NCBI GenBank assembly: GCA_033762295.1
Contig: JANRLW010000001.1
Coordinates: forward strand, 1-40,726
Source: Capsulimonadales bacterium
Lineage (GTDB): Bacteria > Armatimonadota > Armatimonadia > Armatimonadales > Armatimonadaceae
Direction: 5' to 3'
Length of the DNA: 40,726 bases
Shown: in pieces, positions 6,002-22,431 of the stretch
Position numbering within the stretch: position 1 is the first letter of the stretch
Layout of the letters: each line of letters begins with the position of its first letter
Program-made: the position numbers and the translations under genes
Notes under the pieces: model-generated
What the model was told of the DNA's origin: nothing
The model's database searches: none
What the model saw: only the letters and a program-made list of their open reading frames with translations

Positions 6002-8131
6002 CTATTTTGGCGGTTTCGGCTCCCCGAAATAGATTCCCCGGCCATTCGTTCCGATAAAGACGCGCCCGAAGGTCTGCCAGGAGGCGGCCATGCTGTTCGG
6101 ATCGTCGCCGACCGGTATCGCCGGGTCCTGAATCGTCTGCCAGGAGACGCCGCCGTCGGTCGATCGGTAGATCCCGTCCCGTCCCTTCGCCGGGCGTCCG
6201 TACAGGTAAAGCGTCGGTTCGGTCGCGCCCGGCGCGGCCTTTCCGACCGCGAAAAGGTGCGAACCGGCGACCGACACAACCGGCGCGAACGTCGTCCCGC
6301 CGTCCGTCGACCGGTGCAAACCGCCCTCCCCGACCGAGAGATAGACCCGCCCCGCCTGGCCGGGTACGGTGACGAGGGCCGGATTGCCTCCCTTCGGCAG
6401 TCCGGTCGCCGCCGGCACGAAACGCGTCCCGCCGTCCTCGGATCGGAAGAGAGTCCCCTCGTGATAGGCGTAGAAGGTCGCCGGTTTCGCGCCGTCCGCC
6501 GCCAGCGGTTGTGTCCAGTTCCAGGTATCGTGCACCCGGACCCCGTCCAGTCCCTCGACCGGCTGCCACGATTTACCGCCGTCCCTGGTCGACAGCCCGC
6601 CGTCCGCGCCCAGTTTCAGGACGACGAGATTGGCCGGATCGGTCGCCGAGATCGCGATTCGCGCGGGCACGGTTTTTTCGTCCCATTGTCCGAATCCGCG
6701 CCAGGTTCTGCCGCCATCATCGGAGGTCGCCCCGCCGCCGGTTCCGTTCCAGCGCCGCCCGCCGACCCGGGCCATCGACAGCGGACGGGTCGCGCACCAG
6801 GCGATCTGCAGACAGTCGCCGAACGTCGGTCCCGTTCCGCCGTAGTAGTCCCCGAACCCCTTCGTCGGAAATTCGGTCAGGCTCTCGTGCGGGAAGCCGT
6901 CGACATCCGCCACTCCGGAGAGCAGCGGCAGACCGACCGGCGGCGCGGCCAGGGAGAAGACGACCACCTCCTCGTGCCCGCGTTCGTCGCTGGCAAACGT
7001 CACCGTCGGGGCGTCGATATCCTCCGTGCGGTAGGTCGCGTACCAGTCCGTCAGCCAGACCCGATTCGGAACCGCGGCGTCGAAGGCGAGACCGGCGACG
7101 TATTGTATCTGACGCATTCCGCCGGAGTACCAGGGGACGGAACTCCGGGTTTCGGTAACCACTCTCTTCCACGTTGCGCCCCGGTCACGCGAACGGAAAA
7201 GCCGCAGTTCGCCCGACTGCCCTGTCACCAGTAGATCCTTCGGATCGCGCGGATGGACCGAGAGACCTCCGAAACCGCCGCTCTCGCCGGGCGGAGTGAT
7301 CTCCGTCCACCGCTGACCGTCCCAGCGGGCAACCCCTTTGCCATGGGTCGCATACAGATGACCGTCCGCGCCCGCCGCGAGTCGTTCGGCGTCGGCCGGC
7401 CCGTTTTCCAGCCGGCGCCAGCGTTCGCCCAGGTCGTCCGAGGCGAATATCCCGTCTCCGAAGACCGACGCAAAGATCGTTCCGCCCGCCGTCGGGACGC
7501 AGGCCAGAGCGTTGATCCCGATCCCTTCCTTTCCTCTGGCCGGCAGGCCGTTCAAACGGGTCCAGGTTTTCCCGTCGTCGCGTGAGCGGAACAGTCCGTC
7601 GTGACGCGAACCGAAAAACAGGACGGGCGGTCCCGCCGCCGTCAGCACCAGACGCGGTCCGCCCCACCGGTGGTCCTCGTTTCCGCCCATCCTGACCGCC
7701 AGAGAAAGCGGTCGCCATGTCCGGCCCCGGTCGGTCGAGCGGAAAAGACGGCCCGGAAGTTCGCTCCATCCGTACTTCCCCGCCGCCACGAACACGACAT
7801 TCGGCCGACGCGGATCGATCGCCAGTCCCTCCCCTCCGTAGTAGTTGCTCTCCTCCCGGCGAAAACCGTCGCTCAGCGAAATCCACTGCCTGCCGGAGGC
7901 GTTCCATCGGAAGAAGCCGCCGACATCGGTTCGAATGTAGACAAGATCCTTCTCCCCGGGATGCGTGACAACGTCGGTCACATATCCGCCGCCGCCGATC
8001 ACGACGTTTTTCCATACATAAGCGGTTGCATTCGGCGTCTGCGCGGCGGATATCCGCCCGCTCAGGAGCAGCAGACCGCCGATCAAACCGAGAATCTCCG
8101 GGAGCGAAGCCGTTCGTGCCTGGTTTTTCAT
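6002..8131 (-). CDS. Secreted GH74-like (xyloglucanase-type) double beta-propeller with BNR/Asp-box repeats
   Basis: Signal peptide, WKNVVIGGGGYV, RTDVGG and GVADVDG (candidate catalytic Asp pair), many SxDxGxTW boxes, and terminal FIGTNGRGIYFG. Confidence 0.85.
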   Translation of the reverse strand: MKNQARTASLPEILGLIGGLLLLSGRISAAQTPNATAYVWKNVVIGGGGYVTDVVTHPGEKDLVYIRTDVGGFFRWNASGRQWISLSDGFRREESNYYGGEGLAIDPRRPNVVFVAAGKYGWSELPGRLFRSTDRGRTWRPLSLAVRMGGNEDHRWGGPRLVLTAAGPPVLFFGSRHDGLFRSRDDGKTWTRLNGLPARGKEGIGINALACVPTAGGTIFASVFGDGIFASDDLGERWRRLENGPADAERLAAGADGHLYATHGKGVARWDGQRWTEITPPGESGGFGGLSVHPRDPKDLLVTGQSGELRLFRSRDRGATWKRVVTETRSSVPWYSGGMRQIQYVAGLAFDAAVPNRVWLTDWYATYRTEDIDAPTVTFASDERGHEEVVVFSLAAPPVGLPLLSGVADVDGFPHESLTEFPTKGFGDYYGGTGPTFGDCLQIAWCATRPLSMARVGGRRWNGTGGGATSDDGGRTWRGFGQWDEKTVPARIAISATDPANLVVLKLGADGGLSTRDGGKSWQPVEGLDGVRVHDTWNWTQPLAADGAKPATFYAYHEGTLFRSEDGGTRFVPAATGLPKGGNPALVTVPGQAGRVYLSVGEGGLHRSTDGGTTFAPVVSVAGSHLFAVGKAAPGATEPTLYLYGRPAKGRDGIYRSTDGGVSWQTIQDPAIPVGDDPNSMAASWQTFGRVFIGTNGRGIYFGEPKPPK

Positions 8132-15802: not shown

Positions 15803-15899
15803 CTGGTACCTCCGTTAGTTCGCACTCCTCCGTGCTTCAACGAAAGGATACCGCCACGACATGAGGGAATCTTCCGCCGAACGGCGTACTATTCAGGGC

Positions 15900-16856
15900 A
15901 TGAGCGATTCCCTTTCCCGTTTGCCGTCCGATTTCGTTCAAACCGTCCTCGGCCTGTGCGGTGAGGACGGCCGTCACTGGCTCCGAACCCTTCCGGATCG
16001 GTTGAACGATCTGGCCGAACGCTGGTCGCTGACGATCCTGCCGCCGTTCGATCTGTCCTTTCACTATGTCGCTCCCGCCCTACGCTCGGACGGAACGCCG
16101 GTCGTGGTGAAGCTCGGCCGCCCCGATGACGAGTTCGCGCGGGAGATGGCCGCCCTTCGCCGCTACGACGGCAACGGTATGGTCCGGGTGCTCGACGCCT
16201 GGCCGGAGCGGAACGCGCTGCTACTCGAACGTATTGTGCCGGGCACGATGTTGACCGATCTGGTTCTCGCCGGACGGGACGATGAAGCGACCGCGTTTCT
16301 GGCCGATACGATGGTTCGCATCCGCCGATCCGCGCCGACCGGCGAAGATGCCGCTCCGTTTCCGACCGCCGCCGAATGGGGCATCGGCATCCACCGGCTA
16401 CGGGAACGCTTCGACGGCGGCACCGGTCCGTTTCCCGTCGCCCTTGTCGAAGAGGCGGAGGCCCACTGGCGCGATCTGATCGCATCGACCGGGGAGCCGG
16501 CCTTTGTCCACGGTGACCTGCACCACTTCAATCTCCTTCGGACGGCGGACGGCGAGTACATCGCCATCGACCCGAAGGGCCTGATCGCCGATCCCTGCTA
16601 CGAGGTCGGTCCGCTGTTCCATAACCCGAACCCCTATTACGCGAACCATCCGGACGCCCGCAAAATGGCGGCACGACGGATCGCGATCCTTTCCGAGCGC
16701 ACCGGTTTCTCCCGCGAGCGGGTCCGCGCTTGGGCCATCGCGCAGACGGTCCTTTCCGCCTGGTGGTACATCGAGGACAGCGACGCCGACTTCGATCTCG
16801 ACCGGTTACGGGAACCGCTGCTCTGCGCCGAACATGTCGCCGCCACCGACCTCTGA
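15900..16856 (+). CDS. Aminoglycoside/hydroxyurea phosphotransferase (APH(6)-like) family kinase
   Basis: Motifs VVVKLG, LLLERI, HGDLHHFN and AIDPKG. Confidence 0.88.
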   Translation: MSDSLSRLPSDFVQTVLGLCGEDGRHWLRTLPDRLNDLAERWSLTILPPFDLSFHYVAPALRSDGTPVVVKLGRPDDEFAREMAALRRYDGNGMVRVLDAWPERNALLLERIVPGTMLTDLVLAGRDDEATAFLADTMVRIRRSAPTGEDAAPFPTAAEWGIGIHRLRERFDGGTGPFPVALVEEAEAHWRDLIASTGEPAFVHGDLHHFNLLRTADGEYIAIDPKGLIADPCYEVGPLFHNPNPYYANHPDARKMAARRIAILSERTGFSRERVRAWAIAQTVLSAWWYIEDSDADFDLDRLREPLLCAEHVAATDL

Positions 16857-17969
16857 CTCCCCGAGCGCACACAGGGCGGCGCGCAGATCGATATTGCCGT
16901 TAGGCCAGTCGAGGGGTGGCGTCTGCATCGTCCCGGCGCGACAGATCCGGCTGACCCCCGACCATTCGACCGCCTTCCGCTCCTCCGCCGCCAGTTCTCC
17001 GGCAACGCCGACACAGGAGAGCGCCCCGCGCAACGGCCGTAAAACCGCGGTCGTTTCGGTCCGGAGGTCGGCGACCGGGATCAGGTGGACGACTCCGTAT
17101 CCGGTCGGCGGAGGCAGCGGCACCGTCCCCGGATACTCGATCACCGTCCAGCGCAGTTCGTGATCCCCATAAACCCGCGCCCCGGCGAAGAGAGCCATAT
17201 CCCGAGCGTTCCGAACGGCCGCCGCGACGGCCGGATCGGTGCGCGGCGGCACGTCCCATCGGTCCGCGCCTTTTTTCAATGATTCGGTCAGCCTCGCGGC
17301 CACACCGGCGGTTCCCCCTTCACAGATCACGGACTGCAGCGACAGGCACCCTCCCTGGTCGTAGAGAAGCACATCACTAGCGAAATCTCCGGCCATCGTT
17401 TCCCCGTTGGCGGTCGCGATTCCGACACTGACGCTGTGCCCGAAGCCGAAGAACGGCACCCGGGCGGGCGTGACCGTCCGGAGTCGTTCGATCGTCGCGT
17501 CACTGCCGTAAGCGATCACGGCATCGGCCGACCGGACGAGTTCCGCCGTTCGGGGATCATCGCCCGGCCAGACATGGAGGGCGATCCGCGCCGCGACCGC
17601 CGGGGCGACTTCGGCCAGCGACTCGACAAAAAGGCGCGGCCAGAGCGTTTCGTCCCGGCTCATCTTCACCCGAACGGAAAACCCGGCGAGGAGACAGGCG
17701 CAGAGCGGCGCCCAGGACATCAGCGGCGTGTTTCCGGCCGGAATCAGCGCGGCGGTGCGTTCCTTGCGGCCCCCGGCAGCGGAGGACAAGCCGACCCCTG
17801 CGGAACGGAGTCCCGGTATCAGCGCGGCCAGGGATAGACGGACCTGGGTCCAGGGAAACGCGCTTCCGGGGGGCGGCGCCCACCCCGTGGCGAGCCGTTG
17901 TTCCCAGACCTCGCCCACCGAAGCCAGCGTGCCGATAATGTCATTTAAGGATGTTCCCGGCTGCGCCAA
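16806..17969 (-). CDS. LuxC-like acyl-CoA/acyl-protein reductase (ALDH superfamily)
   Basis: AGNTP, VKMS, VIAYGSD, GFGHSVS, catalytic DQGGCLS and SRICRAGTMQTPPLDW. Overlaps the 3' end of the convergent kinase gene by 51 bp. Confidence 0.82.
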   Translation of the reverse strand: MAQPGTSLNDIIGTLASVGEVWEQRLATGWAPPPGSAFPWTQVRLSLAALIPGLRSAGVGLSSAAGGRKERTAALIPAGNTPLMSWAPLCACLLAGFSVRVKMSRDETLWPRLFVESLAEVAPAVAARIALHVWPGDDPRTAELVRSADAVIAYGSDATIERLRTVTPARVPFFGFGHSVSVGIATANGETMAGDFASDVLLYDQGGCLSLQSVICEGGTAGVAARLTESLKKGADRWDVPPRTDPAVAAAVRNARDMALFAGARVYGDHELRWTVIEYPGTVPLPPPTGYGVVHLIPVADLRTETTAVLRPLRGALSCVGVAGELAAEERKAVEWSGVSRICRAGTMQTPPLDWPNGNIDLRAALCALGESEVGGGDMFGAEQRFP

Positions 17970-18149: not shown

Positions 18150-19919
18150 ATGGCAAGACGAGAAAATCAATCGGACCGACGGGATCGCGCCGGACGCGGC
18201 GATTACGATCGTGAAACGCCGCGCAGTCTTGAAGACGAAGATCGCCCGATGTACGAAACATCGATTCGCGCCCTGGCGGTCGTCGATGAGCTGCTCGCCA
18301 TGACCTCGCCGTCCGACCAGAAATACCAGTACCTGCTCCTGCTCCGCCATCAACTGGAAGTGGACGAACGGCAGATGCAGGACGCCCAGAAGGTCATCGC
18401 CGAGTACGACGAGGCCTATACCAAGCTGACGTCCCCGGCGAACAAACTGGCGACCTTCCTCGGGACGATCGAGGATGAGGACACGGTCCTGATCGCGCTG
18501 GGCGACCAGGAGTTTGTCGCCAACGTCGATCCCAAAGTGGACACGACGACCGCGATCGAGCCGGGAGATCGAGTCCGGGTGAACGATGCCTATGCCGTGC
18601 TCAAGGGAATGGGACCGCATCCCGCCGGTCAGATCGTCAAGATCGCCGAAGTGCTGGCGGACGGACGGCTCCGTGTGTCCATGGACGCTCAGGGCATGAA
18701 CAGCCGCATCGTCGGACGGGCCGAACGCCTGAAAGACTCCCCGCTCAAGAACGGGGATGAGGTCCGTATGGACCCGTCGTACAAGCTCGCCCTCGAACAT
18801 TTCGCCGCCAAGGAGAATCGGGACTACTTCCTGGAAACCGTTCCGCAGATTCCGTGGAGCAAGGTCGGCGGACAGGACGAGGTCATCAGCGTGATTCGGG
18901 ACGCCATCGAGCTGCCGCTGGTCTACCCGGAACTGTACGAGCGGTTCGGCAAGCGTCCGATGAAGGGCATTCTGCTCTACGGGCCTCCGGGCTGCGGCAA
19001 AACCCTGATCGGAAAAGCGACCGCCTACAACCTGACCCGTGAGTATAACGAGCGCACCGGCCAGCAGGTCCAGGAGTACTTCATGTACATCAACGGTCCG
19101 AAGATCCTGAACATGTGGCTTGGCGAATCCGAGCGGCAGGTCCGGGAGATTTTCGCGACCGCGCGGGAAAAGGCGAAAGAGGGCTATCTGGTCTTCATCT
19201 TTATCGATGAGGCCGAGTCGATCCTTCGCACCCGAAACAGCGGACGGTTCACCAATATCTCGAACACGGTCGTGCCGCAGTTCTGCGCCGAAATGGACGG
19301 ACTGGTCTCGTCGGAAAACGTCGTCGTCATGCTGACGTCCAACCGGCCCGATTACATCGACCCGGCCATTCTCCGACCGGAGCGGATCGACCGCCGTGTC
19401 CGCGTCAAGCGGCCGGATCGCAAGGCGGCCCGCGATATTCTGTCGATCTATCTGAACGAGAACGTTCCTCTGGATGCCGAGGAAGTGTCGAAGCAGGACG
19501 GTGACCGGAAAGCTACCGCCCAGGCGCTGGTGGACGCGACGATCGCCTACCTGTGGCGTAAGGATGCCGAAACCGAGTTTCTCGATGTTTTCCATCGCAA
19601 CGGCGGCACCGAGCGGCTCTACTGGAAAGACCTGGTTTCCGGTGCGCTGCTGTCGTCGCTGGTCGAGCGGGCGAAGGATTTCGCGATCAAACGGGCCATC
19701 GAAAATAAGGACTTCGAGAGCGCCGGGATTACCCAGGCGGACCTGAACCGCGCCGTCGCCATGGAGTACAAGGAGAACGAGATCTTCCCCAAGTCGGATG
19801 CGGTGGAGGACTGGCTGATGCTCCTCGACCAGGCGCCGGAGAACGTTGCCGACGTCAAGCCGATTCGTCAGGAAACGCGGGGCCGCGGCACCGCCAAAAC
19901 GCCGTCGGGCGTCATTTAA
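18150..19919 (+). CDS. arc: Proteasome-associated AAA+ ATPase, ARC/Mpa family
   Basis: N-terminal coiled coil ending KLTSPAN, two OB-like domains, LLYGPPGCGKTLIGKA, FIFIDE, SNRPDYIDPAILRPERID, LVSGA and EYKENEIFP..EDW, as in Mpa/ARC. Confidence 0.88.
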   Translation: MARRENQSDRRDRAGRGDYDRETPRSLEDEDRPMYETSIRALAVVDELLAMTSPSDQKYQYLLLLRHQLEVDERQMQDAQKVIAEYDEAYTKLTSPANKLATFLGTIEDEDTVLIALGDQEFVANVDPKVDTTTAIEPGDRVRVNDAYAVLKGMGPHPAGQIVKIAEVLADGRLRVSMDAQGMNSRIVGRAERLKDSPLKNGDEVRMDPSYKLALEHFAAKENRDYFLETVPQIPWSKVGGQDEVISVIRDAIELPLVYPELYERFGKRPMKGILLYGPPGCGKTLIGKATAYNLTREYNERTGQQVQEYFMYINGPKILNMWLGESERQVREIFATAREKAKEGYLVFIFIDEAESILRTRNSGRFTNISNTVVPQFCAEMDGLVSSENVVVMLTSNRPDYIDPAILRPERIDRRVRVKRPDRKAARDILSIYLNENVPLDAEEVSKQDGDRKATAQALVDATIAYLWRKDAETEFLDVFHRNGGTERLYWKDLVSGALLSSLVERAKDFAIKRAIENKDFESAGITQADLNRAVAMEYKENEIFPKSDAVEDWLMLLDQAPENVADVKPIRQETRGRGTAKTPSGVI

Positions 19920-20963: not shown

Positions 20964-21791
20964 TCACGGGCCGACGACCGGCTTCACACAACGGAAGCCG
21001 GTATCCCGTCAGGTGGCTTTCGCGCCCTCGATGCCGCGTTCGTAGGTGCGACAGGCGCGTTCCCCGTAACCGACCGCGCCACCCCGGAGAATCCGCTGCT
21101 CCGGGTTTCCGTGGTACAGCCCCTGTACCCACTCCCAGGCGTTTCCGGCCATATCGAGGCAGCCGTAGGGACTGGCGCCGGCGAGAGCGGAGCCGACCGG
21201 ACGTACCCGCGACGGCGTCAGCGCGCACCGGTTCGCCGCTTTCTCCATCAGAACCGGCGTCACCTTTTTCTCCGAAGTTCGCTGCCGTGCGGCCACGCGT
21301 CGTTCCTCCCAGTCGTTTCCCCACGGGTAACGGCGTCCGTCCGTTCCACGGGCCGCCTTCTCCCACTCGTCCTCGGTCGGCAGCCGTTTCCCGGCCCACC
21401 GTGCGTACGCGTCCGCCTCGTCGTAGGTGACGTTGGTGACGGGCAGATCGTCCTCGCCCGTCGGATAGGCATGCTCCGGGCGGAAGCGCCGGTAGTCCCG
21501 GTTGGTTACCTCGGTTCGGTCGATATAGAAGGATGGGAGAAAGACGCGTCGTTCCGGCTTTACGTCGTCGTCCGCGTCCTCCTCCTCCGACCCGATCCGG
21601 CACCAGCCCCCGGGCACATACACCATCCCGGTCGGGGTCGCCGCGCGTTCCCCGGCCAGGACGGACGGGGCAGGCGGACGGGGCTGCGACAGAACGGCGA
21701 ACACCACGACGGCCGTTCCGACCGTTCCGACCGTCACGGCCATTCCCGTCCTTCCCGCCCTCGTTCTTATCCATTGGAATCGTTCGTTCAA
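20964..21791 (-). CDS. Membrane-anchored FGE/SUMF1/EgtB/PvdO-family protein with an in-frame UGA (candidate selenocysteine at 21009-21011)
   Basis: Motifs FYIDRTEVTN, LPVTNVT, KRLPTEDEWEKAARG, DMAGNAWEW and RGG. After the TGA the same frame continues RDTGFRCVKPVVGP* to 20964. TTG start with a GGAGG RBS. Confidence 0.85.
20967..21008 (-). promoter_or_regulatory. Candidate bacterial SECIS element
   Basis: UGA-CGGGAU-ACCGGCUUC-[CGUUGUGU]-GAAGCCGGU-CGUCGG-CCCG: a perfect 9-bp upper stem with G at loop position 2. Confidence 0.65.
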
Positions 21792-21927
21792 ACGTCGTTT
21801 CCTCCCGTCAGGAATACGAGCGATGCCCTGCCAATGGTTCGACCGGTAAAAAACCTCGGCAGGGCACGTGTGATTTTCCCGGAAATCGCGAATAATGGAG
21901 ATGCATCATTTAGAAAGGAACAGGCAC

Positions 21928-22431
21928 ATGGAAACCATGCCACCGAACGCGGAGCGGGTCGCCGGCGAACTGATCGCCCTTGGCCGATCCGGCGTCGTCC
22001 TCGGAGTTTTCGTGACGGAACAGGCCGGTCTGCGCGCGACCTATGCCCTGGTCAGCGGAATGCTGCCGGACGGCGCGTTGCGCGTCGGCGACTGGGACGT
22101 GACCCCGATCAGCGCCCAATCGCCGATCGGTCGCCGTCTTCAGGAAGCGCAGATTGCCGAAGAGGTCGTGATCCGTACCCCGAACGGCGACATCGCTCTG
22201 GAAGTGATCTCGGTCAACGGCTGTCCGCTGATCTCGCCCCAGGAGCGTTTGCGCCTGCGGAAACTGCGCGAGGAAGAGCGCCAGACAGCGCTCGCCGCCC
22301 GCTGGGCCGCCGAACAGGAAGCCCATCGCCGCCGGGTTCGCCAGCAGAAGGAACAGGCGGAACTGGCCGAATTGAAACTCCGCCGCAAGGAACGCGATCG
22401 CAATTGGCGGCACGGGTTGACCGGGCGGTAA
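21928..22431 (+). CDS. Protein with a GreA/GreB C-terminal-like domain followed by a charged helical tail
   Basis: ISAQSPIGRRL..AQIAEEVVIRTPNG..LEVISV matches the Gre CTD pattern. GAAAGGA RBS precedes ATG 21928. Confidence 0.65.
   Translation: METMPPNAERVAGELIALGRSGVVLGVFVTEQAGLRATYALVSGMLPDGALRVGDWDVTPISAQSPIGRRLQEAQIAEEVVIRTPNGDIALEVISVNGCPLISPQERLRLRKLREEERQTALAARWAAEQEAHRRRVRQQKEQAELAELKLRRKERDRNWRHGLTGR

Follow-up and report, generated by a model that had tools for sequence, protein, structure and literature searches.

The stretch of DNA analysed here (the window, 40,726 nucleotides from the genome of a Capsulimonadales bacterium, contig JANRLW010000001.1 of assembly GCA_033762295.1) carries on its minus strand a gene that very probably encodes a selenocysteine (Sec)-containing protein. 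From sequence comparison, the product is predicted to be an exported, anchored protein of 275 residues that has the fold of the formylglycine-generating enzyme (FGE) but is not an FGE. The gene is a member of a widespread and uncatalogued family of FGE-fold selenoproteins. A preliminary description of the region had already read an in-frame UGA of this gene as a Sec codon and the product as 275 residues long; this reading is now supported by the conservation of TGA or Cys codons among homologues, by the frame that stays open beyond the UGA, by a downstream hairpin and by the Sec machinery of the genome.

The minus-strand open reading frame (ORF) starting at position 21791 ends at a TGA (21011-21009) after ...RGIEGAKAT. 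Beyond this triplet, the same frame continues for 14 codons, from CGG GAT ACC to GTC GGC CCG, which encode RDTGFRCVKPVVGP, and closes at a second TGA (20966-20964) located 19 nt ahead of the ATG (20944) of a downstream nth-like (endonuclease III-like) gene; these positions are those given in the preliminary description. An alternative ATG start is present at 21743 and was chosen by gene callers, and the database version of the protein has 244 residues and stops at the UGA. The Pfam FGE-sulfatase domain matches residues 54-270 of the read-through protein and reaches profile position 255 of 255 (E 3.2e-47; 161.8 bits versus a cut-off of 23.3), so the match runs through the TGA. Since the terminal GFR motif lies past the first TGA, a product stopping there would lack the terminal motif of the domain, as had been anticipated.

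The codon at this position is strongly conserved. In a word-indexed search of a protein collection, 8000 candidates were scored and the best 120 listed, with 54-100% identity. Among these best 120, 110 proteins, including the 244-residue call of the window, end at the residue just before the Sec position, which agrees with the earlier expectation that automated annotation would truncate the protein. The other 10 continue as T-C-x-D-T-G-F-R, and none has another residue at this position. Orthologues were then retrieved from genomes: 11 of 61 related genomes contain one (threshold E <= 1e-40), 10 of them with exactly one in-frame TGA and one without, and 26 of 401 genomes sampled evenly over the phylum contain one (threshold E <= 1e-70), 24 with one TGA and two without; the carriers span four families. 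Across 27 orthologue loci, the window genome included, the aligned codon is TGA in 25 cases and TGC in two, with GFR kept downstream, which is the pattern the preliminary description had proposed to look for. The TGA loci come from different genera and families and show 51-68% protein identity. Leaving out one TGA locus that runs off its contig (L120), all 24 complete TGA loci extend the frame by another 11-20 codons, with the sequence x-D-[TV]-G-F-R-[C/G/T/V], and finally stop at TGA (9), TAG (9) or TAA (6). In these 24 loci, the codons past the UGA vary synonymously (Asp is GAT in 5 and GAC in 19, and Gly uses all four codons) with conservation of the residues, and the Thr/Val codon between the UGA and the hairpin also varies with its residues conserved. 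The tail peptide is shared by the Cys forms and the superfamily consensus.

The same form of the gene is present beyond the sampled genomes. A degenerate DNA pattern, E-G-x3-T-TG[A/C/T]-x-D-x-G-F-R, was searched in metagenomes, and 80 of the 101 matching stretches were taken as loci. The RGG..Y context upstream assigns 43 of these 80 loci to the family, 30 with TGA and 13 with TGC or TGT, and the other 37 are chance matches. A metagenome-assembled genome labelled Vulcanimicrobiota carries a homologue of 42% identity (L026; Sec codon at 6550) with TGA, an 8-bp hairpin, the Cys189 equivalent, Tyr242 and Thr260; the Sec form thus occurs in at least two phyla. In a deep search of representative sequences, which gave 98,186 superfamily matches, the orthogroup collapses to one representative, truncated at the UGA. 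As a superfamily control we used distant FGE-sulfatase paralogues, namely 80 loci from a contig search with the family alignment (32-42% identical among the matches listed); one of the 80, L026, turned out to be the Vulcanimicrobiota family member just described. In the 73 of them that could be aligned at the Sec position, Ser (10), Asn (9), Tyr (9), Arg (5), Pro (5), Ala (4) and others are found, and Cys in only 3. Variable residues in homologues had been put forward as an argument that would speak against Sec; they do occur in these paralogues, but the paralogues constitute a different subfamily, to which the argument does not apply. Indeed, since the position is variable there, Sec/Cys is an innovation of the present subfamily.

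A hairpin resembling a selenocysteine insertion sequence (SECIS) is present just downstream of the UGA. The 23 other full TGA loci share an 8-bp helix (GNUUUCGC / GCGARNNC) that has a UGC-type loop and begins 10 nt 3′ of the UGA; the stem of the window has 9 bp and begins 7 nt past the UGA. Of the cells of the 8-bp helix in the 24-sequence alignment, 97.9% are paired, compared with 31-64% after a shift of the 3′ partners by 1-3 columns; in 500 shuffles, a control that ignores relatedness, neither the observed percentage of pairing nor the covariation score was ever reached. The helix pair 21-37 changes on both sides (A-U in 14, U-A in 6 and G-U in 2 sequences, and C-G in the Vulcanimicrobiota locus), the Gly wobble base being matched by a change in the following codon (Ser UCN, Thr ACN or Ala GCA). 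Since these wobble changes are matched by different partner codons, they indicate that it is the RNA, and not the protein, that is under selection here. Several codons of the hairpin arms are frozen: Phe is TTT in 23 of 24 sequences, Arg is CGC in 22 of 24 and Ala is GCG in 22 of 22.

For the contrast between TGA and TGY (Cys) forms, a register-specific count of pairs was used in place of the total folding energy. With genomes and metagenomes pooled, 33 of 40 distinct TGA sequences have all eight canonical pairs and 36 have at least seven, whereas none of the 11 distinct TGY sequences has eight and one has seven. The four TGA sequences with fewer than seven pairs are those of the window (L014), L139, L154 and L188, and the first three have alternative helices of 9, 7 and 10 bp, respectively. 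TGA and TGY forms could not be told apart by the total folding energy of the 36 nt that follow the codon (means of -10.4 versus -8.9 kcal/mol, one-sided Mann-Whitney p 0.18, with most metagenomic TGA rows left out), nor is the 81-nt fold around the UGA of the window exceptional relative to shuffles (z -1.42). The hairpin signal is a specific helix and not overall stability. No Rfam family matched, apart from two sub-threshold matches to small RNAs, and Rfam has no model able to score such an element. The selD gene of the same genome (G000 contig C128:21777-22718, L003), which belongs to a known selenoprotein family and has an in-frame UGA (...RCAG-UGA-ASKIG...) followed by a comparable stem-loop, served as a positive control.

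The genome is equipped for Sec insertion. It encodes SelA (E 1.9e-131), SelB (318 bits versus a cut-off of 242), SelD, itself with one in-frame TGA, and one tRNA-SeC(tca); selA, selB, selD and tRNA-Sec, for which the preliminary description had suggested checking the genome, are thus all present. A strong SelA match was found in 24 of 25 genomes with the TGA form (10 of 10 in the relatives set and 14 of 15 further ones), and SelA is also strong in the Vulcanimicrobiota genome (G409). As for the Cys-form genomes, one has only a 32-bit SelA match (G010) and another has SelA (G094).

These observations strongly support the following scenario. A ribosome arriving at the UGA (21011-21009) would meet, a few nucleotides downstream, a hairpin that recruits SelB with Sec-tRNA(Sec). 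This hairpin would be composed of the Gly-Phe-Arg codons of the last fold motif and of the following Ala/Val-Lys/Arg-Ser/Thr/Pro codons. Sec would be put in at position 261, and 14 more codons would be translated up to the real stop, giving an exported, membrane- or lipid-anchored protein with an FGE/SUMF1 (C-type-lectin-like) fold.

Several observations weigh against this reading. The TGA locus L188 has only five of the eight canonical pairs and no good alternative helix, and the hairpin of the window is itself in a shifted register. The 5′ arm of the hairpin coincides with codons of an invariant protein motif, so that coding accounts for some of its conservation, and covariation is two-sided at one pair only; moreover, the six U-A cases at pair 21-37 probably represent a single clade. 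As to the machinery, one TGA-form genome, 86% complete (G387), has no SelA match. SelA is also common in the group anyway (strong in 37 of 61 relatives), and its co-occurrence with the TGA form is therefore supportive but not decisive.

Other explanations of the UGA were considered. The codon could be read through as a standard amino acid, either by near-cognate decoding as Trp, Cys or Arg or under an alternative code. Read-through of this kind is known in bacteria, and the comparative data demonstrate continued translation and not the nature of the inserted residue. However, TGA is an ordinary stop in this genome, where it ends 3 of the 16 Pfam-supported ORFs of the window, this very gene at its terminator and, over the whole genome, 1403 of 2832 long open frames; a reassigned genetic code is thus not the explanation. 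Cys is the sole alternative at the position, as is characteristic of Sec/Cys exchange, the full Sec machinery is present, and the hairpin goes with TGA and is lacking in TGY forms. Insertion of a standard residue seems, consequently, very improbable.

That the UGA is a genuine stop is very improbable. The protein would then have 260 residues and lack the last strand, and the downstream segment would be an RNA element, such as a terminator or a regulatory hairpin, preceding the next gene. Such a view accords with the gene callers, which end 110 of the best 120 homologues there, with the stable hairpin downstream and with the start of the next gene of the window 19 nt past the second stop. It does not explain why the x-D-T codons that separate the UGA from the hairpin change synonymously while their amino acids are kept, nor why the peptide past the UGA supplies the GFR motif with which the Pfam domain ends and which the Cys-form homologues translate. 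In addition, the downstream genes vary between loci, which leaves no shared regulatory target, the hairpin lacks a U-tract, and each of the 24 complete loci has 11-20 open codons past the UGA. Finally, although a single window cannot exclude a nonsense mutation, a pseudogene or a sequencing or assembly error, such an origin is scarcely conceivable, since the same TGA recurs in 25 of 27 orthologue loci at 51-68% identity, in 30 metagenomic contigs and in a second phylum, which excludes a sequencing error or a private nonsense mutation.

The features of the Sec-encoding gene are collected in Table 1.

Table 1. Features of the predicted selenoprotein gene, in coordinates of the window
Feature	Position	Strand	Basis or remark
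Read-through coding sequence, 275 codons	20967..21791	minus	TTG start at 21791
Hydrophobic stretch near the N-terminus, residues 17-34, following Arg-rich residues; interpreted as signal peptide or signal anchor	21690..21743	minus	
FGE-sulfatase (PF03781) domain, residues 54-270, spanning the UGA	20982..21632	minus	Pfam match; fold by Foldseek
Cys189 codon (TGC); candidate Sec partner	21225..21227	minus	Orthologue alignment
Tyr242 codon; invariant, aligned with human Cys336, the first copper-binding Cys of FGE	21066..21068	minus	Alignment to human FGE
In-frame UGA, read as Sec261	21009..21011	minus	Frame and orthologue comparison
SECIS-like hairpin: 9-bp stem ACCGGCUUC / GAAGCCGGU, 8-nt loop CGUUGUGU	20977..21002	minus	Starts 7 nt 3′ of the UGA
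D263-T-G-F-R-C268 codons, conserved terminal fold motif; also the 5′ arm of the hairpin	20988..21005	minus	Translated only with UGA read-through
True stop codon (TGA)	20964..20966	minus	

The read-through and Cys forms were assembled in a 36-sequence alignment, on which an AlphaFold model was built. The model has a mean predicted local distance difference test (pLDDT) score of 84.3 and a predicted template modelling (pTM) score of 0.82, and shows an N-terminal helix (residues 2-34) and an FGE fold; pLDDT is 91 at residues 261-270. The best Foldseek matches are CalU17, pFGE/SUMF2 and bacterial and human FGE (E 4e-17 to 3e-14, template modelling (TM) score ~0.6, probability 1.00). Orthologues have at their N-termini an equivalent hydrophobic anchor or a lipobox, L-[AVS]-G-C (e.g. 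...LLFLAGC), which argues for an extracytoplasmic FGE-fold domain. A membrane- or lipid-anchored domain of this kind fits both these signals and the N-terminal hydrophobic helix of the model, in line with the outward-facing, membrane-anchored protein initially proposed.

The alignment reveals only two universal (seleno)cysteine positions. U/C261 is kept in 36 of 36 sequences and Cys189 in 34, the other two having a Cys one residue earlier; Cys189 sits in an insert absent from FGE and pFGE. Y242, E244, R248, E255, T260 and D263 are invariant as well. In the model, DSSP assigns isolated bridge residues at 188 and 260, each directly ahead of Cys189 or Sec261, which is compatible with these two residues being neighbours. 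The preliminary description had envisaged a Cys/Sec redox pair, and such a pair may exist, but the likely partner of Sec261 is Cys189. The Cys of GFRC (32 of 36) and the FGE-type Cys247 (26 of 36) are both dispensable and were rejected as partners. The further statement of the preliminary description that the FGE catalytic Cys pair is missing proved right for the first Cys, replaced by Tyr242; the second, Cys247, is present in the window protein and variable in the family.

Since only Sec261 and Cys189 are universal, they would form a redox or metal site. Tentatively, this could be a redox couple of the selenenylsulfide type or a soft-metal site with two ligands, for example for Cu(I). Sec261 would then be the reactive residue of an active site rebuilt in the C-terminal region that carries the copper Cys pair of FGE, and the protein may act on an extracytoplasmic substrate. 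A more specific version, which we regard as rather unlikely, is that the Cys189/Sec261 pair replaced the bis-cysteine copper site, giving an extracytoplasmic selenolate-thiolate Cu(I) oxidase or selenenylsulfide oxidoreductase whose substrate, a protein or a small molecule, would have nothing to do with sulfatase maturation. If so, the strong predominance of Sec forms over Cys forms would imply a chemical requirement for selenium rather than an optional improvement. Two results count against these functional proposals: no conserved His or other obvious metal ligand accompanies Cys189/Sec261 in the 36-sequence alignment, and no conserved neighbour was found among 43 flanking ORFs from 25 loci.

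Exchange between Sec and Cys was followed on a maximum-likelihood tree of 34 rows, from which P0032 and P0029 were dropped because their last 200 residues are identical to those of L015 and L109. The Cys label changes 3 times on this tree (bootstrap range 2-3), well-supported branches force at least two changes, and one Cys form and a Sec form are grouped as sisters with support 100/99. Sec and Cys were thus interconverted repeatedly, whichever the direction, on a tree rooted only at midpoint. Metagenomes also contain a divergent sister group with Cys (TGC/TGT) only and no hairpin, of the pattern [RK]GGA[HF].Y.P.Q.R.SY.GFEG...TCNDVGFRC; its loci (L124, L129, L135, L142, L144, L147, L175, L177, L196 and L198) keep E-G-x3-T-C-N-D-V-G-F-R.

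The genes flanking the selenoprotein gene differ from locus to locus and include nth, GreA-C-like, PMT_2, DUF1501, Crp, GntR, MFS, an AI-2E transporter and PspA. A PspA/IM30 gene lies divergently upstream in L113, L115 and L117, which belong to one lineage, and L113 and L114 have an AI-2E-family transporter downstream; these adjacencies may reflect lineage synteny only. In the window, a divergent 178-aa ORF at 21895-22431 on the plus strand, which has a long, charged coiled tail and weakly matches the GreA/GreB C-terminal domain (28 bits), is not conserved beside the orthologues. Further genes stand within a few kb of the selenoprotein gene with no link seen, namely a phosphotransferase of the APH(6)/hydroxyurea-kinase family (15861-16856, plus strand) and a LuxC-like acyl-CoA reductase (16806-17969, minus strand). 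The window also encodes, at 18150-19919 on the plus strand, a 589-aa AAA+ protein with Prot_ATP_ID_OB_N/C and AAA domains, which is an Mpa/ARC-like ATPase. Among its other genes, the genome has DUF1559 (N-terminal methylation motif) and PEP-CTERM genes, which look planctomycete-like.

The family appears to be new among selenoproteins. A 2026 catalogue (Zhang et al., AEM 2026, PMC13188914) gives 119 prokaryotic selenoprotein families or subfamilies with domain identifiers in its Table 1, and that table contains no PF03781, FGE, SUMF or EgtB entry; the comparison with published selenoprotein lists proposed at the outset thus finds the family absent, as far as this table goes. No specific NCBIfam selenoprotein model matched the window protein, and full-text literature searches, with subscription-only papers outside their scope, found no description of an FGE-fold selenoprotein. 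A term search of the preprint of Haft and Gwadz (bioRxiv 10.1101/2022.07.06.499078), where truncation by automated annotation is described for other selenoprotein families, found no mention of one, nor does such a candidate figure in Table S9, the part considered of a planctomycete genome paper (PMC4807772). The family therefore adds to the selenoproteins a fold never linked to selenocysteine, and most of its public sequences are mis-annotated as truncated, as exemplified by the 110 of 120 closest homologues and by the single 50%-identity representative of the group. It is also unusual in being exported, mostly Sec with few Cys forms, and devoid of a UxxC/CxxU redox motif; for these reasons it may reveal chemistry in which sulfur poorly replaces selenium. 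Besides, it illustrates a design of bacterial SECIS in which invariant Gly-Phe-Arg codons provide one arm while the free C-terminal tail evolves the other, which would explain how Sec could arise at position 261.

Compared with FGE (human SUMF1 1Y1E, Thermomonospora curvata 6S07 and Streptomyces coelicolor 2Q17), the window protein has the same fold (Foldseek E 1e-14 to 1e-15, TM ~0.6) and the same Pfam domain, and some members share an extracytoplasmic or secretory location. The conserved residues specific to the family fall in the C-terminal stretch that holds the copper-binding Cys pair of FGE. In diversity-generating retroelement targets of FGE fold, the same C-terminal stretch bears the ligand-binding residues. 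The active-site pair of human FGE is Cys336/Cys341 in the passages covered of PMC4505483, and a profile alignment anchored on this pair equates Y242 with Cys336, C247 with Cys341 and U261 with Ala358; residues 357-360 are not mentioned in the passages covered of PMC4375846 and PMC4505483. In this family, then, the first catalytic Cys is replaced by the invariant Tyr242 and the second is dispensable. Likewise, Cys218, which in FGE forms the structural disulfide Cys218-Cys365 with the Cys of GFRC, is an invariant Ala, while Sec261 and Cys189 have no FGE counterpart. A true formylglycine-generating enzyme was rejected on the grounds that Tyr242 replaces the first catalytic Cys and that a canonical FGE is encoded elsewhere in the genome, as a separate lipoprotein with an LC-x4-C-xRYR motif (G000 C84:63954-64838, L222). 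A third FGE-sulfatase gene (G000 C22:4110-5000, L224) encodes a cysteine-less paralogue ending in ...HGFRPV.

The best sequence match among solved structures is SUMF2/pFGE (1Y4J; E 9e-22 with a single sequence and 6e-33 with a profile). Like the window protein, SUMF2/pFGE, PvdO (5HHA) and CalU17 (6VQP) are stand-alone FGE domains without the catalytic Cys pair, but they have Ser or another residue at the Sec/Cys position and lack the Cys189 insert. PvdO was rejected as an identity, its NCBIfam equivalog score being far under the cut-off, as were the lipoproteins of type IX secretion and gliding PorK, GldK and GldJ (78, 35 and 32 bits versus NCBIfam cut-offs of 350-458). A natural Cys-form homologue was found in generic FGE-sulfatase clusters only of the protein atlas. 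The best partial NCBIfam matches of the window protein are with the EgtB/OvoA/SenA/OvsA group, where the FGE-like domain serves sulfur or selenium chemistry. EgtB, SenA and OvoA were nevertheless rejected, since they gave 95, 78 and 25 bits versus cut-offs of 360, 420 and 400 and matched the FGE-like part only; the window protein has a membrane anchor and a short linker at its N-terminus instead of their DinB-like iron-binding domain. Enzymes of this type take selenium as a substrate and, to our knowledge, are not themselves selenoproteins.

The gene resembles bacterial selenoprotein genes with a SECIS in the coding region, such as fdhF/FdhA and SelD. It shares with them the in-frame UGA, the Cys homologues, the hairpin within the coding region and the dependence on selA, selB, selD and tRNA-Sec. 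It differs in having neither UxxC nor CxxU, the Sec being placed 14 residues from the C-terminus, ahead of a structural strand. The family further departs from known selenoproteins in that Sec forms outnumber Cys forms by 110 to 10 among its best 120 homologues.

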